Source: an uncultured Chloroflexia bacterium
GTDB lineage: Bacteria > Chloroflexota > Limnocylindria > Limnocylindrales > CSP1-4
Reading direction: 5' to 3'
Assembly (NCBI GenBank): GCA_963713975.1
Contig: OY970218.1
Location: 896,001 to 960,000, forward strand
Length of the DNA stretch: 64,000 nucleotides
Numbering within the stretch: position 1 is the first letter of the stretch; each line of letters opens with the position of its first letter. This document shows, piece by piece, positions 17,167-26,791 of this stretch. The notes under the pieces are model-generated. The model did no database searches and was not told the origin of the DNA. It saw nothing but the letters and a program-made list of their open reading frames with translations. The translations under genes and the position numbers were made by a program.

Positions 17167-20007
17167 CTACCAGGACACCAGCTTCCAGATCTCGGGCTCC
17201 AGCTCGCCCGGGCGGCCACCGATCTCAGCGAACAGGCTCACCGCGTGCTTGAGGTGCTCCATCGCCTCCTCGTGCCGGCCGGCGGCCTGCAGCTGGTCGG
17301 CAAGGTTGTTCTCCACGGCCGCCTCGAGATGCAGCTCCCCGGTCCGGCGACATTCGGCCAACGCGTCCTCCAGGAGCCCGATGGCGGACTCCCGATCGCC
17401 CGCCGCCGCCTCGACCAGGGCGAGGGCATTGGAGGCCGCGATCGCGGCCCCGGGGTCACGGTCGTTGCCCGTCCCTGCGGTGTCGAGCGCCCGGCCCAGC
17501 TCGAGGCGCGCCGAATCCGGGTCGCCCCGCCGGAGTGCCACGAGGCCGGAGAGACGGCTGGCCGCTCCGATCGTCCGAAGGTCACGCGCGCTGTCGAGCG
17601 CCTCGGCCGCAAGCGCCGCGGCGAGACCGAGATCCCCGGCCCGGAGCGCGACCGTGCCGCGTTCCACCTGCGCCGCCGAGGCAACCTTCTCGTCGCCTCC
17701 GGCGATCGCCGCGTCGAGGTGGCTCGCCGCCGTCGCCACGTCGCCGCGGCGAGCGTGGACCCGGCCCAGTCGTAGCTCGATCTCCGGAAGCTGCGCCTCG
17801 GACACGACCGCGGCCGCCGCCTCCAGCGCCGTGGCCGCCGCCGCGTAGTCGCCCAGGGCCGTCCGAACCTCGGCGATGGCGACCTGCAGCCCGGCCACGT
17901 CCGGGTGGCCCAGGGCCAGCGCCGTCTCGAGGTGCCCGAGCGCCTCGCGGTTCGCGTGCACAGGTCGCGACGCCAGCCCCGCCTCGCGATATGCCTCCGC
18001 TGCCGCCGCGTCGCGACCCGCCGCATGCTCGTGACCGGCGATCTGGGCGAGACGCCCGGGGTCGTCCCGGCTCGTCGGGGCTGCGCGGAGGATCTCGGCG
18101 ACCCTCCGGTGGAGCAGGCGCCGGCGGGCAAGGCCCGTGTCGTCATACGCCGCGTCCCGGAGCCGCGCGTGGCTGAAGTCGAATGCCGATTCGCCGGCGC
18201 TCGCGACCTCGCGAACAACTCCTCGGCGCACGAGCTCCTCGAGTGCGGTCACCGTCTCGTCATCCGAGCGACCGCTCGCGGCGCGGACGGTCGTGAAGTC
18301 GAAGGAGCGGCCGATGACGGCAGCCGCAGCGAGCACCTGGGACGCGATCCCACCCACAGTCGACAGGCGCTCGTGAAGCAGCGCCCGCACGCCGCGCGGT
18401 GGTGCGTGGCGGTCGGCCCCCGGGCCCGCCAGGAGTGCCTCGACGACGTAGAGCGGAAGCCCCTCGGACTCCGCTGCAAGCGCCGCCGCATCCCAGGACG
18501 GCTGGCCCGCAGCAGCAGCCGACTCGACCAGCGCCCCGACCACGACATCGTCCAGCCGCTCCAGCCGTACCGACGTCGCTCCGGGCAGCCCCTGCACTGC
18601 ACTCGCAAGCGCCGTGGCTCCGCCCTCCATGTCCTCGGGACGCCACGTGAGGCACAGGAGCATCGGCCGGTCCGCAAGCCGCCGGGCGAGGTACAGCAGC
18701 GCCTCACGCGACGCATCATCCGCCCACTGCAGGTCCTCGAGCACCAAGATGCCCGGCACGGGCCCGCGGACGAGCGCCGTGAGGACGCTCGCGATTGCCT
18801 CGAGCAAGCGCGCGCGCGCGGCGGGCGAGTCCGACTGCCCGGCGGCAGCGACCCCGGCGGTGACGCCATCGGGCAGGGGCACAAGCCGCTCGACCTCCGC
18901 GAGGCCGGCCGTTGGGACATGGGCGAGACGCTCGGCGGCTCCCGACATCGCGAACCCTGCACGAAGCAGCTCCACGATCGGGCCGTAGGCGATTGACCCT
19001 TCGGCCGGGAATGCGCGCGCCTCAAGGGCCGCTGCCCCATCGGCGGCAGCGGCGGTGACAAGCGTCCCCACGAGGCGGGACTTGCCGATCCCGGCCTCGC
19101 CCGTGACCGAGGCGACACGACCGTCGGGCGACGACGAGAGGAACGCGGCACGGAGCGATGCCAGCTCCTGGCGCCGACCCATCATAGGCAGCCGTGCCGG
19201 CGCATCTGGATGGCCGGGGGGGGTCGCTTCGGCCGGCGGCGGCATCGACGGCGCCTCGAACCGCTCGTCCCGGATCGCCTCGTACAACTCCGTTGTCTCC
19301 GCGAGCGGCGCCACGCCGAGCTCCCGCTCCAGCACGGCCACGGTCGCGCGGTACTGGCGGATGGCGCCGGCGCGGTCGCCGCTGCCCGCCAGCGCGGTCA
19401 TCAGGCGGCGGCGCGCAGGCTCGTCGAGTGGGTCCAGCTCCACGAGCCGCATGACCGCGGACACGGCAGTCTCCGTGTCACCCGCGGCCCCTGCCGCCGT
19501 TGCCAGCCGGCCGAGGACGTCCACGATACGGCGCTCGATGGACACGGCCCGGGTAGCGCGCCAGTCATCGAAGTCCGGGCTGTCGCGGAGCGCGAAGCCG
19601 GCCAGGAACGGGCCGCGCGCAAGGTCCGCGGCGGTTGCGAGCACCACGGCGTCGGAGGTGTCGGCAGCGACGGCAGCCTCCAGGCCGGCGAGATCGAAGC
19701 TGACACCGTCGCCGGCCATCTCGAGGGCAACAGTGAAGCGATCCACCCGCAGCCACCGGTCGCCGAGCGCCGTCCGGAGGACCGACAACGTCCGGCGGAG
19801 CGCGCCGCGAGCCGACTCGTCGTCCGATTCCGGCCAGAACAACGCCGCGAGCTCGTCCCGCGCGTAGGGCCGTCCCTCCACCGCCAGCAGGGCAACGATG
19901 GCGAGCGCTTTCCTCGTGTCAACGTGGATCGGCTTGCGGTCGACCAGCACCTCGAGCGGGCCGAGGACGCGGACCTCAAGCATGGCGTCAGGGGACGACT
20001 GCGGCAT
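17167..20007 (-). CDS. AfsR/SARP-type regulator (wHTH-BTAD + STAND-like ATPase + TPR)
   Basis: LEVRVLGPL, ALFWPE, RGPFLAGF, DPLDE, GEAGIGKS Walker A, LEDLQWAD, GLPLY, FSHARLRD, TPR-like C-terminus; start 20007 or 19983. Confidence 0.9.
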   Translation of the reverse strand: MPQSSPDAMLEVRVLGPLEVLVDRKPIHVDTRKALAIVALLAVEGRPYARDELAALFWPESDDESARGALRRTLSVLRTALGDRWLRVDRFTVALEMAGDGVSFDLAGLEAAVAADTSDAVVLATAADLARGPFLAGFALRDSPDFDDWRATRAVSIERRIVDVLGRLATAAGAAGDTETAVSAVMRLVELDPLDEPARRRLMTALAGSGDRAGAIRQYRATVAVLERELGVAPLAETTELYEAIRDERFEAPSMPPPAEATPPGHPDAPARLPMMGRRQELASLRAAFLSSSPDGRVASVTGEAGIGKSRLVGTLVTAAAADGAAALEARAFPAEGSIAYGPIVELLRAGFAMSGAAERLAHVPTAGLAEVERLVPLPDGVTAGVAAAGQSDSPAARARLLEAIASVLTALVRGPVPGILVLEDLQWADDASREALLYLARRLADRPMLLCLTWRPEDMEGGATALASAVQGLPGATSVRLERLDDVVVGALVESAAAAGQPSWDAAALAAESEGLPLYVVEALLAGPGADRHAPPRGVRALLHERLSTVGGIASQVLAAAAVIGRSFDFTTVRAASGRSDDETVTALEELVRRGVVREVASAGESAFDFSHARLRDAAYDDTGLARRRLLHRRVAEILRAAPTSRDDPGRLAQIAGHEHAAGRDAAAAEAYREAGLASRPVHANREALGHLETALALGHPDVAGLQVAIAEVRTALGDYAAAATALEAAAAVVSEAQLPEIELRLGRVHARRGDVATAASHLDAAIAGGDEKVASAAQVERGTVALRAGDLGLAAALAAEALDSARDLRTIGAASRLSGLVALRRGDPDSARLELGRALDTAGTGNDRDPGAAIAASNALALVEAAAGDRESAIGLLEDALAECRRTGELHLEAAVENNLADQLQAAGRHEEAMEHLKHAVSLFAEIGGRPGELEPEIWKLVSW

Positions 20008-20040
20008 GGCGCGTAACGGTACAACTTCGGCGCGCAATGT

Positions 20041-20073
20041 CGTAACGTTCTGCGAACGGCGTCTCCGCATCAT
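20041..20073 (+). promoter_or_regulatory. paired heptamer (CGTAACG-N4-GCGAACG) + -10-like CATCAT
   Basis: In the SARP/sensor divergent intergenic region; a further CGTAACG lies at 20012-20018. Confidence 0.6.
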
Positions 20074-20081
20074 CCGGTGCC

Positions 20082-21257
20082 ATGACCGCGTCCCGCGTTC
20101 GACCGGCCCTCGTCGCCTGGCTGCTCGCCATCCTCGTGATCGCGCTGAGCGGCTGGGTGCTGTTGCCGTTCCCGCGCCCTCCCACGGGCTGGGAGGAGGT
20201 CGCGTGGATCATTGGGTTCGGCGTCGGGTTCACGACCATTGGCGCGCTCCTCGTCGATCGTCGTCCCCACGAACCGGTCTCCCGGATCACGCTTGGCATC
20301 GGCTTGATCGTCGTCGCGGCGGTTGGGCTGCGGGCGCTGGCCGTGGCGCTCGATGCGCGGCCCGGAGACCTGCCGGCAGCCGGAGCGCTGGCAGCCGCCC
20401 TGTCCGCGGTGCTCCAGGCCATCGCGTTCCTCGCATCGGGCAGCTTTCTGCTGGTCCGTTTCCCAAACGGGCGCGAGCGCGGCCGCCTGTCAGCTTCGGT
20501 TGATGCGCTGGTCGTGCTGATCGGGACTGCGGCAGTGCTCAACGTATTCGCCCCAGGCCGGATCGCCGTGGACTACCTGTCCCCGACGGAGAACCCGATC
20601 GGCATCGAGCGGCTCGATCCCGCGCTGTTCAAGGCGATCGGGACCCTCGCCCTCGCCGCCTACGCCGTGAGCCTGGTGCTCGCGGTCGTCGTCGTCGCTC
20701 GCCGCTACCGGCGTTCCGACCCGGTCGCCCGTGCCCAGATTCGATGGGTCGCGGCGGCGGGCCTCCTGCCCGTGGTGCTCGCGCCGCTCATCTTCACGTC
20801 CGAGTGGATGTGGACGGTCTGGCTCCTCTCGACCGCCCTGCTGCCCGTTGCGATCGGCATTTCGATCCTGCGCTACCACCTGTTCGACATCGACCGGATC
20901 GTCAGCCGCTCGCTCGCGTACGCGATCGTGACCGCCGTCCTGGCCGTGACGTTCCTCGGCACGAACCTCGTCCTCCAGGCGCTGATCGCGGACACCCTCG
21001 CGGCCGGCACGTTCGCGGTCGCCGCGTCCACGCTCGTGGTGGCGGCGCTGTTCCAGCCTGTGCGGGGCCGGGTCCAGGCGCTGCTGGACCGACGGTTCAA
21101 CCGGCGTCGGGTCGACGGCGACCGTATCGCCCGCGCGTTTGCCACCGGTCTCCGCGACCGCGTCGACCTCGACGAGGTCCGGGCGGCGATGCTCGCCGCG
21201 GCGGACGAGGCCGTCGCCCCCGCGTCGCACGGCCTGTGGATCCGGAGCGCCGGATGA
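20082..21257 (+). CDS. multi-pass membrane sensor-like protein 1 ending in truncated GAF N-part
   Basis: About 10 hydrophobic segments; FPNGR, ENPIG, RAQIRW, ILRYHLFDID, LFQP.R.RVQ..DRRFNR, ends ...ASHGLWIR. Confidence 0.8.
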   Translation: MTASRVRPALVAWLLAILVIALSGWVLLPFPRPPTGWEEVAWIIGFGVGFTTIGALLVDRRPHEPVSRITLGIGLIVVAAVGLRALAVALDARPGDLPAAGALAAALSAVLQAIAFLASGSFLLVRFPNGRERGRLSASVDALVVLIGTAAVLNVFAPGRIAVDYLSPTENPIGIERLDPALFKAIGTLALAAYAVSLVLAVVVVARRYRRSDPVARAQIRWVAAAGLLPVVLAPLIFTSEWMWTVWLLSTALLPVAIGISILRYHLFDIDRIVSRSLAYAIVTAVLAVTFLGTNLVLQALIADTLAAGTFAVAASTLVVAALFQPVRGRVQALLDRRFNRRRVDGDRIARAFATGLRDRVDLDEVRAAMLAAADEAVAPASHGLWIRSAG

Positions 21258-22408
21258 TGCCGCGTGGCCTGACGCTCGTGCTCGCGTCGATCTCGCTGCT
21301 CACGCTCGGCGCCAGCGTGGTCCTGTTCGCCGCCGTCGATTACGCGAGCGCCGAGCTACTCATCTTCACGCCATCGGTCGCGGCCTTCGTCGTCATCGGT
21401 GCGTTCGTGCTGCAACGGCAGCCGTCGAGCGTCGTCGGCGTGCTGCTGCTCGTGTTCGGCGTGGGCGGGAGCGTCATCTACCCGCTGGCTGCCATCGGCG
21501 CGGCGCCAGCCGGCACGCCCTCGGCGGACGTCGCCGGCGCCTTCGTCCAGGCACTGGACCCGATGACCTACGCGACCGTCTCGCTCCTCCTGCTCGTGTT
21601 CCCCGATGGCCGTCTGCCATCGGCGCGCTGGCGACCCCTCGTCGCGATGGTCGCGGTCGGGTTCGCCCTCAGCGTGGTGGGCAACCTGACGACGCCGGGG
21701 GCGCTGCTCGTCTTCCCGCAGCATGAGAACCCCGTCGGGGTGGCGTCGCCGGTGCTCACCGCCGCGGGAGCGGTCGGGTACATCCTCGCGACCGTCTCGA
21801 TGCTCGCTGCCGCGGCCTCGCTCGTCGTCCGCTGGCGGCGCGGCTCGGCCCTCGAGCGGGCGCAACTCAAGTGGATCGCCGCGTCGGGGCTGCTCCTGGC
21901 GTTCGTCTCGGCCCTGTACTTGATCTCGTTCTTCCTATGGGCGGTCGCGCTCCTCCCGCTCGTCGCGTCCTCGATCTCGTTCACGCTGTTCCCGGCGACG
22001 GTCGCGATCGCGGTCCTCCGCTACCGGCTGTTCGAGATCGACCGGATCTTGAGCCGGACGATCGGATGGGCGATCGTGACCGGACTCCTGCTGGCCGTGT
22101 TCGCGGGTGCCGTCGTCGGGCTGCAGGCCGTCCTTGCGCCGGTGACGGCGAACAACACCCTTGCGGTCGCCGCGTCCACGCTCGTCGCGGCGGCGCTGTT
22201 CCAGCCGCTGCGCGCCCGTGTCCAGCACGGCGTCGACCGCCGCTTCAACCGGTCCCGGGTTGACGCGGACCGGGCGGTGGCAAGGTTCGTGGACCACGCC
22301 CGGAACGAGGTTGACCTGGCCCGGCTCAGAGCGGCCCTCGTCGCCACCGCCGATGACGCCGTCCATCCGTCCGACGGGGCAGTCTGGCTCCGGGGGGTCG
22401 CTCAATGA
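21254..22408 (+). CDS. multi-pass membrane sensor-like protein 2 (paralog)
   Basis: FPDGRLPS.RWR, ENPVG, RAQLKW, LRYRLFEID, DRRFNR, ends ...DGAVWLR; ATGA overlap. Confidence 0.8.
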   Translation: MMPRGLTLVLASISLLTLGASVVLFAAVDYASAELLIFTPSVAAFVVIGAFVLQRQPSSVVGVLLLVFGVGGSVIYPLAAIGAAPAGTPSADVAGAFVQALDPMTYATVSLLLLVFPDGRLPSARWRPLVAMVAVGFALSVVGNLTTPGALLVFPQHENPVGVASPVLTAAGAVGYILATVSMLAAAASLVVRWRRGSALERAQLKWIAASGLLLAFVSALYLISFFLWAVALLPLVASSISFTLFPATVAIAVLRYRLFEIDRILSRTIGWAIVTGLLLAVFAGAVVGLQAVLAPVTANNTLAVAASTLVAAALFQPLRARVQHGVDRRFNRSRVDADRAVARFVDHARNEVDLARLRAALVATADDAVHPSDGAVWLRGVAQ

Positions 22409-23646
22409 ATGCACGTCCGACCCCGACCAGGACCCACGTCGCGAGGCCTGGGCTCCGGCTGCTCATAGTCGTGGTGATCGCGATCTCGGTGGTGGCCACG
22501 GTCTCACAGCTCGTGACGGAGCCACGCACGCGGATCAACAGCGTCCTGTTCCTGGTGGCGACCCTGAGCTACCTGGGCGTTGGGCTGGTGCTCGCGGAGC
22601 GCCGGCGCGGCAATCTCGTCGGCGCCCTGGTCCTGCTCCTCGGCGTGTTCTTCGCGAGCTACGTCACGATCGATGCCTACCTTCGCCAGGCGGACCGTCC
22701 CGAAGGCGCCGTTGCGGTGAGCCTTGCGTTGGGCGTGAGCCTCATCGACGGACCCATGTTCTTCGCCGTCGCGATGCTGTTCCTGGTGTTTCCGGACGGA
22801 CGCCTTCCGTCATCGAGATGGCGTGCGCTCGTCGTCGCCTCTGGGGTGTTCGCAAGCCTCACGTTCCTCGGGGCACTCCTCCGGCCGGGCGCGTTCCTGT
22901 TCTACACCTGGTTCGATAACCCGCTCGATCCTCCGCCGAACCTCCTCACCGACACCTGGGATCCGATGTACGGGCTCACGGTGGGCTGCGTCGTGCTGGC
23001 TGCGTTGTCCCTGGTCAGCAGATGGCGACGCGCCGGCGCCGTCGAACGTGCCCAGCTCAAGTGGGTGGCAGCCGCGGCATCGCTCGTCGGGCTTGCCATG
23101 GTGACCTATGGGCTCGGTGCCGGACCTACCAACTACTCAGACGTCGGTGACATGACCGTCGGCGCGGCCTTCTCCCTGTTCCCGATCGCAATTGGCATTG
23201 CCGTGCTCCGCTATCGCCTGTTCGAGATCGACCGGCTCATCAGCAGGACGCTGGGCTGGGCGATCGTGACGGCGATCCTGGTGGCGTCGTTCGCGGCGAT
23301 TGTCGTCGGCCTCCAGGCGGTGCTGAGCGGCGTCACCCAGGGGGAGACGCTTGCCGTCGCGGCCTCCACGCTTGTTGCCTTCGCGCTCGTCCAGCCGCTC
23401 CATCGCCGCATCCAGCGGACCGTCGATCACAGGTTCAACCGGTCGCGCGTGAATGCCGAACGCACGATCGCCGCGTTCGGCGAGCGGCTGCGCGACGAGG
23501 TTGACCTGGCTGCGATCAGCGCCCAGGTCCCGGCGACTGCCGACGCGGCGGTGCAGCCATCCAGCGTCGGTCTCTGGCTGCGCCGCGGGACGGCTGGCGA
23601 TCTCGTAACGATGTCCGAACGCCCGAGCACGAGCATGCGCACATGA
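22405..23646 (+). CDS. multi-pass membrane sensor-like protein 3 (paralog)
   Basis: FPDGRLPS.RWR, DNPL, RAQLKW, LRYRLFEID, RLRDEVDL, ...SVGLWLR; ATGA overlaps at both ends. Confidence 0.8.
   Translation: MNARPTPTRTHVARPGLRLLIVVVIAISVVATVSQLVTEPRTRINSVLFLVATLSYLGVGLVLAERRRGNLVGALVLLLGVFFASYVTIDAYLRQADRPEGAVAVSLALGVSLIDGPMFFAVAMLFLVFPDGRLPSSRWRALVVASGVFASLTFLGALLRPGAFLFYTWFDNPLDPPPNLLTDTWDPMYGLTVGCVVLAALSLVSRWRRAGAVERAQLKWVAAAASLVGLAMVTYGLGAGPTNYSDVGDMTVGAAFSLFPIAIGIAVLRYRLFEIDRLISRTLGWAIVTAILVASFAAIVVGLQAVLSGVTQGETLAVAASTLVAFALVQPLHRRIQRTVDHRFNRSRVNAERTIAAFGERLRDEVDLAAISAQVPATADAAVQPSSVGLWLRRGTAGDLVTMSERPSTSMRT
23604..23636 (+). promoter_or_regulatory. internal paired heptamer (CGTAACG-N4-CCGAACG) + -10-like GAGCAT
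   Basis: Within the 3' end of sensor 3, 6 nt before ATG 23643. Confidence 0.55.
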
Positions 23647-25304
23647 CAGCAATCAGCCGTCCGTTTCGCCGCCTGATCGGCCGTCCTGTGGCCGAGGCCG
23701 TGGCCGCCCCGGTGCCGTCCGCGGCCGCCACGGTGGAGCAGCCCGGCGTGGCGATCGACATCCCCGAGACGGACCCCCTGTTCGCCTACCTCCAGGCCGC
23801 GCCGGGCCCCGTCGACCTGACGAGGCTCGAGCTCGGCTCAGCGGCCCTCGACCACCTCCGTGAAGCCGGCGTCGCGCTCGTCGTGCCGCTGGTGACCCAG
23901 GGCGAGCTGATCGGGACCCTGAACCTCGGGCCGCGCCTGTCCGAGCAGGACTACTCCACCGACGATCGCCGTCTCCTGGCCACCCTCGCCGCTCAGGCGG
24001 CGCCCGCGATCCGCGTCGCCCAGCTGGTCCGCGAGCAGGCAGCCGAGGCCGCCGAGCGCGAGCGATACGAGCAGGAGCTCAAGGTCGCCCAGCTCATCCA
24101 GCAGCAGTTCCTGCCGCGCGAGCTGCCGAACCTGCGCGAATGGCAGATCGCCGCGTACTACGGCCCGGCGCGGGTCGTCGGCGGGGACTTCTACGACTTC
24201 ATCGACCTCGGGGAGGGGCGCATCGGCGTCGTCGTCGGCGACGTCACCGACAAGGGCGTCCCAGCTGCCCTCGTCATGGCCCGCACCCACTCGATCCTCC
24301 GGGCCGAGGCCCCGCGGCTCATCGAGCCCGGCAAGGTGCTCGCCCGCGCCAACGAGCTGCTCACGCCGGAGATGCCCGCCCGGATGTTCGTCACCTGTCT
24401 CTACGGCGTGCTCGAGCCCGAGAGCGGCCGCTTCACCTTCGCAAACGCCGGCCACAACCTGCCGTACCTCAGGACCGCGGATGGCGTCATCGAGCTGCGG
24501 GCGACCGGCCTGCCGCTGGGCCTGATGCCCGGGATCGTCTACGAGGAGACAGACAGCGTCATCGGCCAGGGCGACGCGATGCTGCTCTACTCCGACGGGC
24601 TTGTGGAGCAGCACGGTCCCGGTCGCGAGATGTACGGCTTCCCGCGCCTGCGTGAGGCGATGGCCACCGACGACGCCGGGAGCGTGCTCCTCGACCGCCT
24701 GCTCGATGAGCTGCATGCCTTCACCGGGTCGGCTTGGGAGCAGGAGGACGACATCACGCTCGTCACCCTCCGCCGCTCGGCGGGCGTGGCCGACATGTTC
24801 GCCGCAGACGGCCCGGGCGTGCCCCTCACCCGAGACGATGCCGCCGCCGAGGAGTTCCCCCAGGATGCCGAGCCGCTCATCGCATTCACGGTCGAGGGCG
24901 CCATCGGCAACGAGCGGGGTGCGATGCAGCGGGTTGCCGACGCGGTCGCCCCGCTGGGCCTCGAGCCCGCGCGACTCGAGCGCCTCAAGACCGCGGTCGC
25001 CGAGACTGTGATGAACGCCATCGAGTACGGCTCGCAAGGCAGTCCCGACGTTCCGGTCGACGTCCGGGTCGACGTCGACGACGCGGCCATCCGCGTCCGC
25101 GTGACCGACCGCGCGCTCTCGGGTCCCGTCCCGGACGCCGAGATGCCGGATCTGGACGCGAAGCTCGAGGGTCGCCAGAAGCCCAGGGGCTGGGGCCTGT
25201 TCCTCATCCGCCACATGGTCGACGGCATGGATGTGCACGCCGAGGACGGCCTCCAGACCGTGACCCTCACCATCGCCCGAACCCCCCAAGGAGGTGCGTC
25301 GTGA
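23643..25304 (+). CDS. partial GAF + SpoIIE/RsbU PP2C phosphatase + RsbW-like HATPase fusion
   Basis: LVVPLVTQGELIGTLNLG (GAF C-part); VGGDFYD, GDVTDKG, NAGH, YSDGLVE, DDIT (PP2C); ETVMNAIEYG, RGWGLFLI (HATPase). Confidence 0.9.
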   Translation: MTAISRPFRRLIGRPVAEAVAAPVPSAAATVEQPGVAIDIPETDPLFAYLQAAPGPVDLTRLELGSAALDHLREAGVALVVPLVTQGELIGTLNLGPRLSEQDYSTDDRRLLATLAAQAAPAIRVAQLVREQAAEAAERERYEQELKVAQLIQQQFLPRELPNLREWQIAAYYGPARVVGGDFYDFIDLGEGRIGVVVGDVTDKGVPAALVMARTHSILRAEAPRLIEPGKVLARANELLTPEMPARMFVTCLYGVLEPESGRFTFANAGHNLPYLRTADGVIELRATGLPLGLMPGIVYEETDSVIGQGDAMLLYSDGLVEQHGPGREMYGFPRLREAMATDDAGSVLLDRLLDELHAFTGSAWEQEDDITLVTLRRSAGVADMFAADGPGVPLTRDDAAAEEFPQDAEPLIAFTVEGAIGNERGAMQRVADAVAPLGLEPARLERLKTAVAETVMNAIEYGSQGSPDVPVDVRVDVDDAAIRVRVTDRALSGPVPDAEMPDLDAKLEGRQKPRGWGLFLIRHMVDGMDVHAEDGLQTVTLTIARTPQGGAS

Positions 25305-25660
25305 CCGACCGCCTGTCCATCGAGATCATCACCGCCATCCCCGGCGAGGCCCGCCTGGCGATGCGTGGAGATGTCGACGTCGCCGCGGACGAAGTCCTCT
25401 CCGCGGCATACACGGAGGCCGCGGCCGCCGGCGCAACCCGCGTGGTCCTCGACTTCGGCAATGTCGACTACATCAACTCGACCGGCATCGCGCTCATCGT
25501 CCGGCTCCTGGCGGAAGCGCGTCGCGACCACCGCGAGGTGATCGCGCTCGGGCTGTCCGAGCACTACCGGGAGATCTTCCGGATCACGCGCCTGTCCGAC
25601 TACCTCACGATCGCCGACGGCCTGCCGGCGACGCCCGTCCCCGAGGAGGCAGCCCGATGA
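25301..25660 (+). CDS. STAS anti-anti-sigma factor (RsbV-like) 1
   Basis: VLDFGNVDYINSTGI, IFRITRL; AAGGAGG SD. Confidence 0.9.
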   Translation: MTDRLSIEIITAIPGEARLAMRGDVDVAADEVLSAAYTEAAAAGATRVVLDFGNVDYINSTGIALIVRLLAEARRDHREVIALGLSEHYREIFRITRLSDYLTIADGLPATPVPEEAAR

Positions 25661-25998
25661 CCGACACCACCGTGGACGAGACCCGGGATGGATCGACCGC
25701 GATCCTGCGGATCCATGGCGAGATCACCGGGGGCAGCGAGCCTCCGATCATGGCGGCCTACGCCGAGGCCGGCGACGCCCGATCGATCGTCCTGGACTTC
25801 AGCGATCTCGACTACATGAACAGCGGTGGGATCGGCCTGCTGGTCACCTTGCTGGTCCGTGCGCAGCGCGCCGGTCAGAAGCTCCTGGCGATCGGTCTGA
25901 GCGACCACTACAAGCAAATCCTCGCCCTCACCCGCCTCGACGAGGCGATCGCGATCCACGACGACGAGACCGCCGCGCTGGCCGCTGCGTCCGCCTGA
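25657..25998 (+). CDS. STAS anti-anti-sigma factor (RsbV-like) 2
   Basis: VLDFSDLDYMNSGGI, ILALTRL; GAGGAGG SD. Confidence 0.9.
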   Translation: MTDTTVDETRDGSTAILRIHGEITGGSEPPIMAAYAEAGDARSIVLDFSDLDYMNSGGIGLLVTLLVRAQRAGQKLLAIGLSDHYKQILALTRLDEAIAIHDDETAALAAASA

Positions 25999-26047
25999 TC
26001 TCCGCGGCCCGCCAGGGCCTGCGCCCCATCGAGAACGGAGAACCGCG

Positions 26048-26791
26048 ATGACCACTCCTGATCCCCGCGCGCCCCGTGACCAGGAATCCTGGGCCCGGCC
26101 CGTCGACCGCCTGACCACCACCGCCACCGGCGCCGGCTCCGACACCGTCACCGGCAAGCGCGTCGCCGGCCCCGTCCAGGGCTTCGGCCAGATGTGGCAG
26201 AAGACGTTCGCGATCCGCGTGCCCGGCGATGAGCACTCGCCCGAGGAGGTGATCTCGCACTGGAAGGAGAGGTTCCCGACGTTCTGGCCGAAGGGCGCGA
26301 CGTTCTACGCGCCGCTCGCCGGTATCTCGCCGGGCGAGGTCGCGCTGCTCGAGATCCCGCCCGTGCCGGGTTCCCCGGTCAAGATGTCCACCGGCGTGAT
26401 GGTGATCTACGCTGACCGCGAGTCGTTCACCTTCATGACCCCGGAAGGGCACGCGCTGGCCGCATGGATCACCTTCTCCGCATACCGGGACGGCGACGAG
26501 ACCGTCGCCCAGGCACAGGCGCTCGAGCGCACCAGCGATCCGCTGATCGAACTGACCTATATCTTCGGCGCGAACCGGTCGAACGACGCGTTCTGGGAGA
26601 AGACGCTGGCCAACCTCGCACGGTCGCTCGGCGTCACGTCGCCGGTCGTCGAGACCACGAAGGTCTGCGTCGACAAGCGACGCCAGTGGAAGCACGCGGG
26701 CAACGTGCGGCACTCGCCGGCGGTGCACATGACGGTGTCCACGATCACGGCGCCGGCGCGCTGGGTCCGGCGTCGGAGGACGACGAGCTGA
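26048..26791 (+). CDS. conserved hypothetical protein (possibly DUF1990/SRPBCC-like)
   Basis: FTFMTPEGH..A.WITF motif resembles DUF1990-like proteins; GGAG SD. Confidence 0.6.
   Translation: MTTPDPRAPRDQESWARPVDRLTTTATGAGSDTVTGKRVAGPVQGFGQMWQKTFAIRVPGDEHSPEEVISHWKERFPTFWPKGATFYAPLAGISPGEVALLEIPPVPGSPVKMSTGVMVIYADRESFTFMTPEGHALAAWITFSAYRDGDETVAQAQALERTSDPLIELTYIFGANRSNDAFWEKTLANLARSLGVTSPVVETTKVCVDKRRQWKHAGNVRHSPAVHMTVSTITAPARWVRRRRTTS

Follow-up and report, generated by a model that had tools for sequence, protein, structure and literature searches.

The window analysed here is a stretch of 64,000 nucleotides from an uncultured Chloroflexia bacterium (contig OY970218.1 of assembly GCA_963713975.1, positions 896,001 to 960,000). 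Its positions 20,082 to 25,304 encode three membrane proteins without an output domain of their own, termed S1, S2 and S3, followed by an enzyme, E, which opens with an incomplete GAF domain, and the locus raises the question of whether one GAF domain can be divided between genes and put together from their products. The region lies within a single-contig genome of 3.62 Mb with a G+C content of ~70%, and the source names of close homologues are Candidatus Limnocylindrales and Chloroflexota. The best explanation of the six genes that begin with S1 is a partner-switching signalling operon in which an ancestral receptor gene, comprising membrane sensor, GAF and PP2C parts, was split inside the GAF domain. 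The reading preferred here, to which we assign a probability of roughly 0.6, is that the two halves assemble in trans to control the enzyme. The six genes are as follows.

20082..21257, + strand: sensor S1, 391 residues, multi-pass membrane protein; tail at about nucleotides 21093-21245, with RFNR at residue 338 and GLWIR at residue 385
21254..22408, + strand: sensor S2, 384 residues, paralogue; tail at about nucleotides 22241-22393, with RFNR at residue 330 and LWLR/IWIR at residue 377
22405..23646, + strand: sensor S3, 413 residues, paralogue; tail at about nucleotides 23431-23583, with RFNR at residue 343 and LWLR at residues 390-393
23643..25304, + strand: enzyme E, 553 residues; N-terminal peptide, linker, partial GAF, PP2C/SpoIIE and HATPase_c_2
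25301..25660, + strand: V1, STAS-domain protein (RsbV-like), 119 residues; Pfam STAS_2 7e-12 and STAS 4e-11; GTG start
25657..25998, + strand: V2, second STAS-domain protein, 113 residues; Pfam STAS 2e-12 (scanned from 25660)

Overlaps of 4 nucleotides join all six genes, with ATGA at the S1/S2, S2/S3, S3/E and V1/V2 junctions and GTGA at E/V1, and the sequence AAGGAGG lies 6 nucleotides 5' of the GTG start of V1. The components of partner switching, namely a PP2C phosphatase, a kinase domain and two STAS genes, are encoded together.

The enzyme carries an incomplete GAF domain

E comprises an N-terminal peptide (residues 1-14, nucleotides 23643-23684, MTAISRPFRRLIGR), an Ala/Pro-rich linker (residues ~15-35), the C-terminal two thirds of a GAF domain (residues ~36-128, nucleotides 23748-24026), a helical linker, a SpoIIE/PP2C domain and a HATPase_c_2 domain. 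Three GAF profiles match the enzyme, PF13185 over positions 85-135 of 136, PF13492 over 41-127 of 129 and PF01590 over 56-133 of 133, and all of these matches fall within residues 29-123 and represent the C-terminal part of the profile only. No single polypeptide of the operon contains a whole GAF domain, E having a partial match and S1-S3 having none in Pfam at an E-value of 0.1 or below. The order of low-complexity linker, partial GAF and PP2C proposed for E in the original prediction, which was made from the DNA letters of the window, is thus confirmed.

The phosphatase domain extends over residues 191-378 (nucleotides 24213-24776) and matches PF07228 over profile positions 2-191 of 192, with an E-value of 1e-48 and 166.3 bits against a cut-off of 25. 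The motifs GGDFYD, GDVTDKG and SDG (D182, D185, D200, D318 and G319) are invariant in 26 aligned sequences. The full-length match, together with these metal-binding Asp motifs, places E within the SpoIIE-family PPM/PP2C phosphatases, and its relatives in the PDB are Rv1364c, SiaA-like phosphatases and SpoIIE. The kinase domain, at residues 427-543 (nucleotides 24921-25271), matches PF13581 with an E-value of 2e-20 and 73.5 bits against a cut-off of 27.4, and is matched by the PDB entries for SpoIIAB and RsbW with E-values of 4e-8 to 4e-6. NCBIfam equivalogs remain far under their cut-offs for E (RsbW, for example, 24.8 against 145). From these profile scores the kinase part is classed as a member of the HATPase_c_2 domain family and as the orthologue of no named protein.

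The sensors end in a conserved tail

S2 and S1 are 41% and 31% identical to S3, respectively, and a hydropathy scan revealed many hydrophobic segments in each sensor. No output domain was found in S1-S3 by Pfam, in which HisKA_7TM (PF16927) matches S1 and S3 below the gathering score of 28.6 (17.1 and 21.3 bits, respectively) and does not match S2. NCBIfam gave no match for S1 or S3, the two sensors scanned. ESM Atlas features lead to HisKA_7TM at 0.86, and the nearest clusters are unnamed hypothetical proteins. The proposal of three coupled, paralogous multi-pass sensors that share an RFNR...LWLR end and lack an output domain was correct in both coordinates and content. The polypeptides stop 3 (S1), 4 (S2) and 20 (S3) residues after LWLR/IWIR, and the 20 residues of S3, which are not conserved, overlie a DNA motif that precedes E.

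Conservation within the sensor family is concentrated at the C-terminal end. Among 54 standalone sensors the mean entropy is 2.5-2.7 bits in the N-terminal membrane part and 3.0 bits after LWLR, as against 0.6-1.8 bits in the conserved RYRL motif, final membrane helices and tail (tail 1.1-1.8). Four residues, F344, R346, P385 and W391 in S3 numbering, are invariant in these 54 proteins, and the equivalent positions are also conserved in an alignment of 103 rows, mostly fused proteins, in which sensor tail and GAF belong to one chain. The tail is unlikely to be a free fragment, since residues of the core have been kept although the tail by itself cannot complete the fold.

Basic segments of membrane proteins are cytoplasmic according to the positive-inside rule. 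The tail follows the last hydrophobic segment and is Arg-rich, and is for these reasons placed, by inference, in the cytoplasm. The family of S3 is very large, with 19,702 clusters (50% identity) at an E-value of 0.001 or below, including a share of fused kinases and phosphatases, and 3,026 clusters at 1e-30 or below. Reading of the table of the best 150 S3-family clusters indicated that 146 end no more than 25 residues from the tail.

Tail and enzyme very probably correspond to one GAF domain

The longer homologues of S3 include single-chain proteins in which membrane part, tail, GAF and PP2C follow each other (P0010 and P0013-P0019), while others end in a HisKA_3 histidine kinase. The search for fused homologues proposed in the original prediction was thereby successful, a further single-chain form being L054 (= P0309), and membrane-GAF-PP2C single-chain receptors are common in the phylum (308 matches at an E-value of 1e-10 or below). 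In the fused proteins the GAF profile PF01590 begins inside the tail. Its positions 1-130 lie on residues 509-644 of P0014, starting at the tail's DLD, and its positions 6-130 lie on residues 514-646 of P0010, also starting in the tail; in both proteins the profile ends at the helix after the VPL...LIG strands.

BLASTP alignments with P0014 locate the gene break of the window on this single chain. S3 residues 45-393 align with residues 191-535 of P0014, with 31% identity to the membrane part and an end exactly at LWLR, and E residues 44-393 align with residues 568-921, with 61% identity over 354 residues. The two alignments are separated by a low-complexity stretch of 32 residues. As judged on the fused homologues, the tail and the N-terminus of E add up to one complete GAF domain.

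The structure of a fused tail-GAF was predicted with AlphaFold for a 184-residue fragment of the natural fused gene L054, using 103 rows of mostly fused homologues, and the model has a mean predicted local distance difference test (pLDDT) score of 80.5 and a predicted template modelling (pTM) score of 0.75. The tail contributes a helix containing RF-x-R (residues 4-31), α1 (37-52) and β1 (LALWI, 57-61), all in blocks with a pLDDT of ~91. These elements are followed by a loop (62-85), within which lies the only stretch below pLDDT 50 (68-78), and then by the remaining helices and strands and a long last helix. The gene break of the window maps to this single disordered loop. A Foldseek search with the model returned 61 PDB matches at an E-value of 0.001 or below, and all 39 of the 39 listed are GAF-containing proteins (TMq 0.48-0.65), among them PDE2A, Lcd1, KdpD-GAF and phytochromes.

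These comparisons make it very probable that the sensor tail and the partial GAF of E derive from, and correspond to, one GAF domain. Each sensor holds ~60 residues of it, namely the juxtamembrane helix, α1 and β1, and E holds the rest. The original prediction had assigned the first GAF part to the sensors and the remainder to the enzyme, and this division is upheld by fused homologues collinear with S3 followed by E and by the identification of the L054 model as a GAF domain by Foldseek.

The fused relatives also display other combinations. The tail-plus-GAF module is fused to HisKA_3/HATPase histidine kinases in P0312, P0314, P0320, P0321, P0329, P0011 and P0021. The sensor-like fused proteins P0010, P0014, P0015 and P0019, and also P0026 and P0037, have an extra N-terminal cupredoxin-like domain, recognised from weak PF13473 matches below the cut-off and from a predicted β-sandwich at residues 58-158 of P0014, which hints at a metal or redox input in that fused branch.

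The gene break is conserved

A divided GAF domain could arise trivially if a frameshift or an assembly indel had split a fused sensor-GAF-PP2C gene, leaving an artefact or a recent pseudogene. The metagenome open reading frame (ORF) P0003 resembles a frameshifted read-through with Arg-rich out-of-frame stretches, and two of the 12 loci fetched from the genus (L019 and L024) have frame breaks in the first ~65 codons of E, which could be assembly indels or decay. Both observations would suit such an origin. Two DNA read sets each contained a fraction of 0.04 of the sampled words and no RNA set was listed, a yield that speaks neither for nor against an indel. The distribution of the split is of another kind. 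E orthologues, 78-91% identical, are present in 13 of 24 genomes of the genus, and none was found at an E-value of 1e-30 or below in 16 genomes of a small-genome sister family. At all 12 fetched genus loci tandem sensor paralogues, 33-58% identical to S1-S3, come before E (81-91% identical), and STAS genes come after it. The genus sensor paralogues are 33-61% identical as against 81-91% for E, and sensors thus evolve much faster than the enzyme. All 37 recognised sensor C-termini (34 from relatives and the 3 described here) stop at most ~30 residues after the Trp, in a count made with a tail pattern that was permissive or incomplete and missed some sensors found by tblastn.

The split extends well beyond the genus. 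In a sample of 300 genomes of the phylum, 16 matches (including that of the window itself) start at the loop, like E, and 7 span the tail as fused proteins, both tallies being undercounts with two candidates scored per genome. Of 19 loci fetched from this sample, 14 are split with the same start architecture, in at least eight families, and five are fused in one frame. The best 120 relatives of the first 190 residues of E all have 627 residues or fewer, in a search open to lengths of up to 968. When one genome per species was scanned with ten aligned E N-termini, at least 534 relatives emerged, and the best 80 of them are all Chloroflexota by title. The E core was located in 75 of these 80, and 74 read as split, so that the case named in the original prediction as speaking against it, with relatives carrying only fused genes, does not apply. 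At 71 of the 74 split loci the 3 kb upstream include a tail-ending ORF in the same orientation, as counted with a tail pattern that was permissive or incomplete and may have given some false matches on the opposite strand. The lone locus called fused, L137, was rejected as a false positive of the pattern, since the same locus had already been seen to be split.

Split enzymes also possess a feature of their own. An N-terminal hydrophobic and basic peptide is common to the split enzymes of all families (MTALTRPFRRL, MTTATRSLWSSLFRRR, MAYFFTTLKRRFRAR and the like), and across the genus loci the intact 5' end of E begins MTA(L/I)(T/S)RP(F/I)RR. The peptide sits on a variable Ala/Pro-rich tether and is not part of the fused consensus; it may serve to dock the enzyme on the membrane or on a sensor, and may have been acquired once fission had occurred. 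The pair of Arg residues brought to mind a twin-arginine translocation (Tat) signal, which was rejected on inspection, the following stretch being charged or Pro/Ala-rich in most families; export of E by this route was also rejected because E depends on ATP and on STAS partners in the cytoplasm.

Sensors thus stop, and E starts, at matching points at 12 of 12 genus loci, at the 14 loci of other families and at the scan loci, with sensors and E in differing relative frames, spacings and gene orders, and with a conserved N-terminal peptide that the fused consensus lacks. Such a pattern goes far beyond chance, and an artefactual origin is scarcely credible against this record. Because the split is kept at 12 of 12 genus loci and in other families, frameshift, assembly error and young pseudogene can be excluded as far as the compared sequences go, in agreement with the original prediction, which had argued against a random frameshift.

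Some database 'fusions' that join sensors to one another or to E (metagenome ORFs P0001, P0002 and P0003) contain Arg-rich out-of-frame stretches and resemble assembly indel artefacts. Given such indel-like ORFs, automatic domain-architecture counts for the sensor/E family will be noisy.

Sensors, enzyme and gene order across genomes

The presence of sensors follows that of the enzyme. Each of the 13 E-containing genomes of the genus has sensors, with 2-11 matches per genome, 10 of the 11 genus genomes without E have none, and in other families 10 of 10 genomes with a split E have 1-16 sensor matches. The 18 distinct tails parsed in the other-family genomes, with a pattern that was again permissive or incomplete, stop 2-27 residues after the Trp. 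Genomes with many sensors and a single half-GAF PP2C, sought in the original prediction, were found, with up to 16 sensor matches against one E orthologue. The related suggestion that more than three sensors might serve one enzyme genome-wide holds for relatives and not for the genome of the window, in which a genome search revealed neither a further sensor of the S1-S3 kind nor a second E.

Gene order is variable. In the genus the sensor arrays lie upstream of E, as do seven sensors in L045, from another family, while elsewhere they lie downstream of the STAS genes, with seven in one genome (G043:C25:275783-283768); fourteen sensor matches are found on one contig of another (G122:C176:484-15596). 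Since gene order is not fixed, any joint function of sensors and E must act in trans. The set of sensors grows and shrinks rapidly about one enzyme gene.

These observations bear on the possibility that the split genes encode an obligate two-gene receptor, the halves of which assemble as a fixed, constitutive complex with no exchange of sensors, the paralogues being redundant or differentially expressed. Such a receptor would fit the six genes with 4-nucleotide overlaps, an arrangement that favours co-translation and stoichiometric assembly, and it would fit the single-chain nature of the fused forms of other lineages. It is less easily reconciled with 1-16 sensor matches per genome for one E orthologue, with arrays that are upstream, downstream or dispersed, and with a promoter-like element of E's own, described below. 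Many-to-one use is favoured over fixed pairs because of the sensor numbers, the array positions and this element, and the obligate receptor is considered quite improbable. It overlaps the preferred reading of assembly in trans and differs from it in dynamics only.

The history of the split was addressed with a maximum-likelihood tree of the GAF C-terminal and PP2C region, comprising 38 rows and rooted on the clade of four-transmembrane (4TM)-type fused proteins (100/100); L019, L024, L053, L055, P0013, P0016, P0017, P0018, P0310, P0325, P0335, P0344 and P0404 were left out because the core pattern was not recognised in them. All split enzymes fall within one clade (100/100), and the fused proteins with a sensor-like membrane part (P0010, P0014, P0015 and P0019) nest inside it (97/96, 98/93, 98/92). 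Two state changes suffice on this tree. Holding the split rows together costs 37.5 log-likelihood units and is rejected by the approximately unbiased (AU) test (p-AU 0.0175), for a group that was named after a quick tree had been seen. The simplest history suggested by the tree is one old fission followed by a sensor-enzyme re-fusion that restored a contiguous GAF domain. Such a re-fusion would provide a Rosetta-stone argument for interaction of sensor and enzyme. The alternative history, several independent fissions at the same loop, equally implies that the parts work together.

Co-folding and proposed mechanism

Co-folding of a sensor tail with E residues 1-140 had been proposed as a check of the original prediction, and one such co-fold was made, with S3 residues 330-413 as the only tail used. 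The ipSAE interface scores were 0.54, 0.54 and 0.55 (best of three controls, 0.00), the pLDDT was 51-57 for the partner and 67-68 for the other chain, the runs agreed in at least 70% of contacts, and the resulting verdict was 'weak support'. The mark applied is reached by 58 of 80 solved complexes and by 2 of 110 mismatched pairs; at an ipSAE of 0.60 or below lie only 7 of the 80 solved complexes and both of the passing mismatches. The S3 tail thus passed weakly, and the co-fold stops short of establishing physical assembly. Given a prior raised by the comparative evidence, this result is mildly favourable to assembly and is not proof of it.

Beside the frame breaks at L019 and L024 and the late naming of the AU-test group, several observations weigh against assembly in trans. 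The co-fold is a weak pass only, and passes of this kind are wrong in the majority of cases, except where the guess was a likely one in advance. AlphaFold prediction of the whole fused P0014, made with 17 rows, gave a pLDDT below 50 across the GAF domain and was uninformative, and the good GAF model comes from a homologue of another family, not from the window's own pair. This GAF has no clear canonical β2, and the model does not define the loop that carries the break or, with it, the packing of E residues 1-43. One genus genome (G010, 86% complete) has a sensor and no E was found in it, and at three of the 74 split scan loci the 3 kb stretch contains no tail-ending ORF. The sensor matches of G204, a complete genome, are all scattered, and six tail-ending sensors of relatives are remote from E and have neither E nor a STAS gene as a neighbour within ~2-4 kb; both arrangements fit action in trans and fit independence as well. 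Related genomes, moreover, are not independent samples.

Several of these points would be expected if fission had not been followed by reassembly, that is, if the sensors were autonomous, their tail a leftover helical cap or self-association element, and the truncated GAF of E functional alone, for example in dimerisation, with the genes linked by co-regulation or descent. The weak co-fold, the sensors far from E without a signalling neighbour, the sensor of G010 and the much faster evolution of sensors than of E all suit this explanation. It has more difficulty with the four residues that are invariant in 54 sensors and have counterparts kept in fused GAF domains, which is odd for a free 60-residue fragment, and with the co-occurrence of sensors and enzyme in and beyond the genus. 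Nor does it readily accommodate a sensor-enzyme fusion that re-forms a contiguous GAF domain within the split clade, or an E without the whole first third of the GAF profile. Fission without reassembly is, on balance, unlikely.

The mechanism that would follow from assembly in trans can be outlined. Each sensor would keep the juxtamembrane helix, α1 and β1, ~60 residues in all, on the cytoplasmic side of the membrane, while E would keep the other GAF strands and the last helix, which runs into the PP2C linker. The amphipathic/basic N-terminal peptide, on its flexible linker, would bring E to the membrane, where its incomplete GAF, not a full domain alone, could be made whole by the tail of any sensor that is there. 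The sensor's state would then pass through α1 and the last GAF helix to the helical linker and so to PP2C activity, and the phosphatase and the fused RsbW-like kinase would together set the phosphorylation of V1 and V2 and hence the output of the switch. The parts of this scheme that we infer are binding in trans, the function of the N-terminal peptide, the direction of regulation and the final target.

Control of this type has parallels. According to a published account, PPM phosphatases are controlled by GAF, PAS and receiver domains through dimeric coiled-coil linkers, and RsbU is controlled by a separate partner, RsbT, which binds its N-terminal region and linker (PMC12143880). The linker signalling proposed for E resembles the ordering of the RsbU linker by RsbT binding. 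In its most specific form the proposal is a plug-in receptor working by fragment complementation, in which diversifying sensors compete or alternate on one PP2C/kinase enzyme, each donating α1 and β1, and the signal would consist in the domain being assembled or exchanged, by which many inputs are integrated into one partner-switching output. This form is put forward tentatively, and we give it somewhat less than even odds.

Regulatory DNA and the adjacent SARP-like gene

Three features of the window are relevant to expression of the operon.

17167..20073, - strand: SARP/AfsR-like regulator (BTAD + AAA_16 + TPR), 968 residues; Pfam BTAD E-value 1.3e-21, AAA_16 6e-23, TPR
20041..20058, + strand: DNA motif CGTAACGTTCTGCGAACG, 24 nucleotides 5' of the S1 ATG; candidate SARP-type promoter/operator of the sensor array
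23604..23621, + strand: DNA motif CGTAACGATGTCCGAACG; candidate internal promoter of E

The motif consists of GTAACG, 5 nucleotides and (C/T/G)G(A/G)ACG, with hexamers 11 bp apart, and is present upstream of E in 21 of 23 aligned loci of several families (L013-L023, L037-L048). A -10-like hexamer, GAGCAT/GAGGAT in the genus and TACAGT/TACACT/TAGACT in other families, lies 8 bp after the second heptamer, and in most aligned loci the ATG follows 6-9 nucleotides past it. At the E site of the window GTAACG and CGAACG are 11 bp apart, GAGCAT lies 8 bp after the second heptamer and the E ATG comes 6 nucleotides later. Before S1 the -10-like place, 8 bp after the second heptamer, is occupied by CATCAT, and an extra CGTAACG is found nearby, at 20011-20017.

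The pattern CGTAACGNTNNNNGRACG has three forward and no reverse matches in the 3.62 Mb genome, and a reversed-pattern control has 0 and 1. Two of the three sites are those 24 nucleotides before S1 and 21 nucleotides before E. The third (G000:C1:2905929-2905946; L056 ~1430) lies in the 3' end of a tRNA 2-thiouridylase-like ORF, ~90-160 nucleotides upstream of a small membrane-protein ORF, and may be due to chance. In most of the printed upstream translations of the scan loci the motif stands in differing frames relative to the ATG, and it is because of this variation that it is regarded as a DNA element and not as coding sequence.

In SARP-dependent promoters, according to a published account, direct repeats recur at a spacing of 11 bp, and 8 bp separate the 3' repeat from the -10 element (PMC10936776). 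On inspection this geometry is found before both S1 and E. The regulator encoded at 17167-20073, divergent from S1, matches the NCBIfam AfsR model at 2e-21, below the cut-off of that model. A SARP-like gene is divergent from and adjacent to the sensor array in four of four genus genomes tested, and lies ~7 kb off in a fifth genome, of another family. Repeat spacing and gene position make the SARP/AfsR-like regulator a candidate activator of the motif-bearing promoters, and suggest that the motif before E is a candidate internal promoter giving a near-leaderless mRNA. The separate enzyme promoter claimed in the original prediction is supported to the extent that a conserved promoter-like motif precedes E; the start of E overlaps the stop of S3, and translational coupling of the two genes is possible as well. 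AfsR-type regulators are themselves under Ser/Thr phosphorylation control, according to the same account (PMC10936776), and by analogy a link of the SARP-like regulator to the neighbouring PP2C/kinase is conceivable.

Scans of positions 19900-26200 revealed neither a sigma-70 consensus promoter nor an intrinsic terminator. Directly after the STAS genes, an ORF of 247 residues (26048-26791, + strand) matches no Pfam family at an E-value of 0.001 or below. Among the operon genes and neighbouring genes that were scanned, no sigma factor or other target was recognised; the search did not extend to the whole genome.

Comparison with known systems and significance

The nearest known architecture is that of the Chloroflexota single-chain membrane-GAF-PP2C receptors, which include the Ktedonobacteria-type 4TM-tail-GAF-SpoIIE proteins of ~555-600 residues (for example P0309 = L054) as well as P0010 and P0014, and which share the tail motif, GAF and PP2C found here; P0010 also has HATPase_c_2, like E. 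Those receptors are one polypeptide, whereas here the GAF domain is divided at the β1 loop, each enzyme gene is accompanied by several sensor genes, and E has the N-terminal peptide in addition.

In the RsbT-RsbU pair of Bacillus subtilis, as in the proposal made here, a second protein activates a partner-switching PP2C (PMC12143880). RsbT, an intact and folded protein of kinase type, binds a complete N-domain, in contrast with the membrane partners of E, which would supply missing secondary-structure elements, and no homology to RsbT or to the RsbU N-domain was found in Pfam/NCBIfam scans of the proteins described here. The best solved relative of the PP2C part of E is Rv1364c of Mycobacterium tuberculosis (PDB code 3ke6; E-value 1.4e-20), which like E joins a phosphatase and an anti-sigma-type kinase in one chain, as set out in PMC12143880. 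Rv1364c (PAS-PP2C-RsbW-STAS) has a complete PAS domain in cis, a fused STAS domain and no membrane partners, whereas E has half a GAF domain and separate STAS genes.

Two further systems resemble the operon in principle, and the first of them, the stressosome, offers a precedent for interchangeable sensor paralogues that converge on one partner-switching phosphatase. In the stressosome several RsbR paralogues feed one RsbT/RsbU; the sensors are soluble STAS proteins in a large complex that release a kinase, and no domain is split. The second is a set of engineered split bacteriophytochrome/GAF reporters, which suggest that GAF-containing proteins can be made to come together again from separate parts. 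These constructs are artificial, their break lies between or within chromophore-binding domains, and they have no role as signalling receptors. A literature search, with subscription journals outside its coverage, found no published naturally split GAF, in keeping with the original prediction, which had known of no described example.

The system is built from ordinary parts, namely GAF, PP2C, RsbW-like kinase and STAS domains and a membrane domain akin to HisKA_7TM. Its unusual feature is the division of the GAF domain between genes at a fixed loop, with many diversified sensors bearing the same fragment and one conserved enzyme bearing the complement. The names of the homologues point to uncultured soil and freshwater Chloroflexota, and the interest of the finding lies in signalling mechanism and protein evolution, not in medicine. 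GAF-type sensor domains are treated as indivisible modules that are shuffled whole. If assembly in trans is true, a GAF domain encoded by two genes would be a new wiring of many inputs to one output and a natural counterpart of engineered split-protein sensors; it would also offer a way to assign partners, by a rule based on sequence, across a large family of membrane proteins that stand unannotated as 'hypothetical'.

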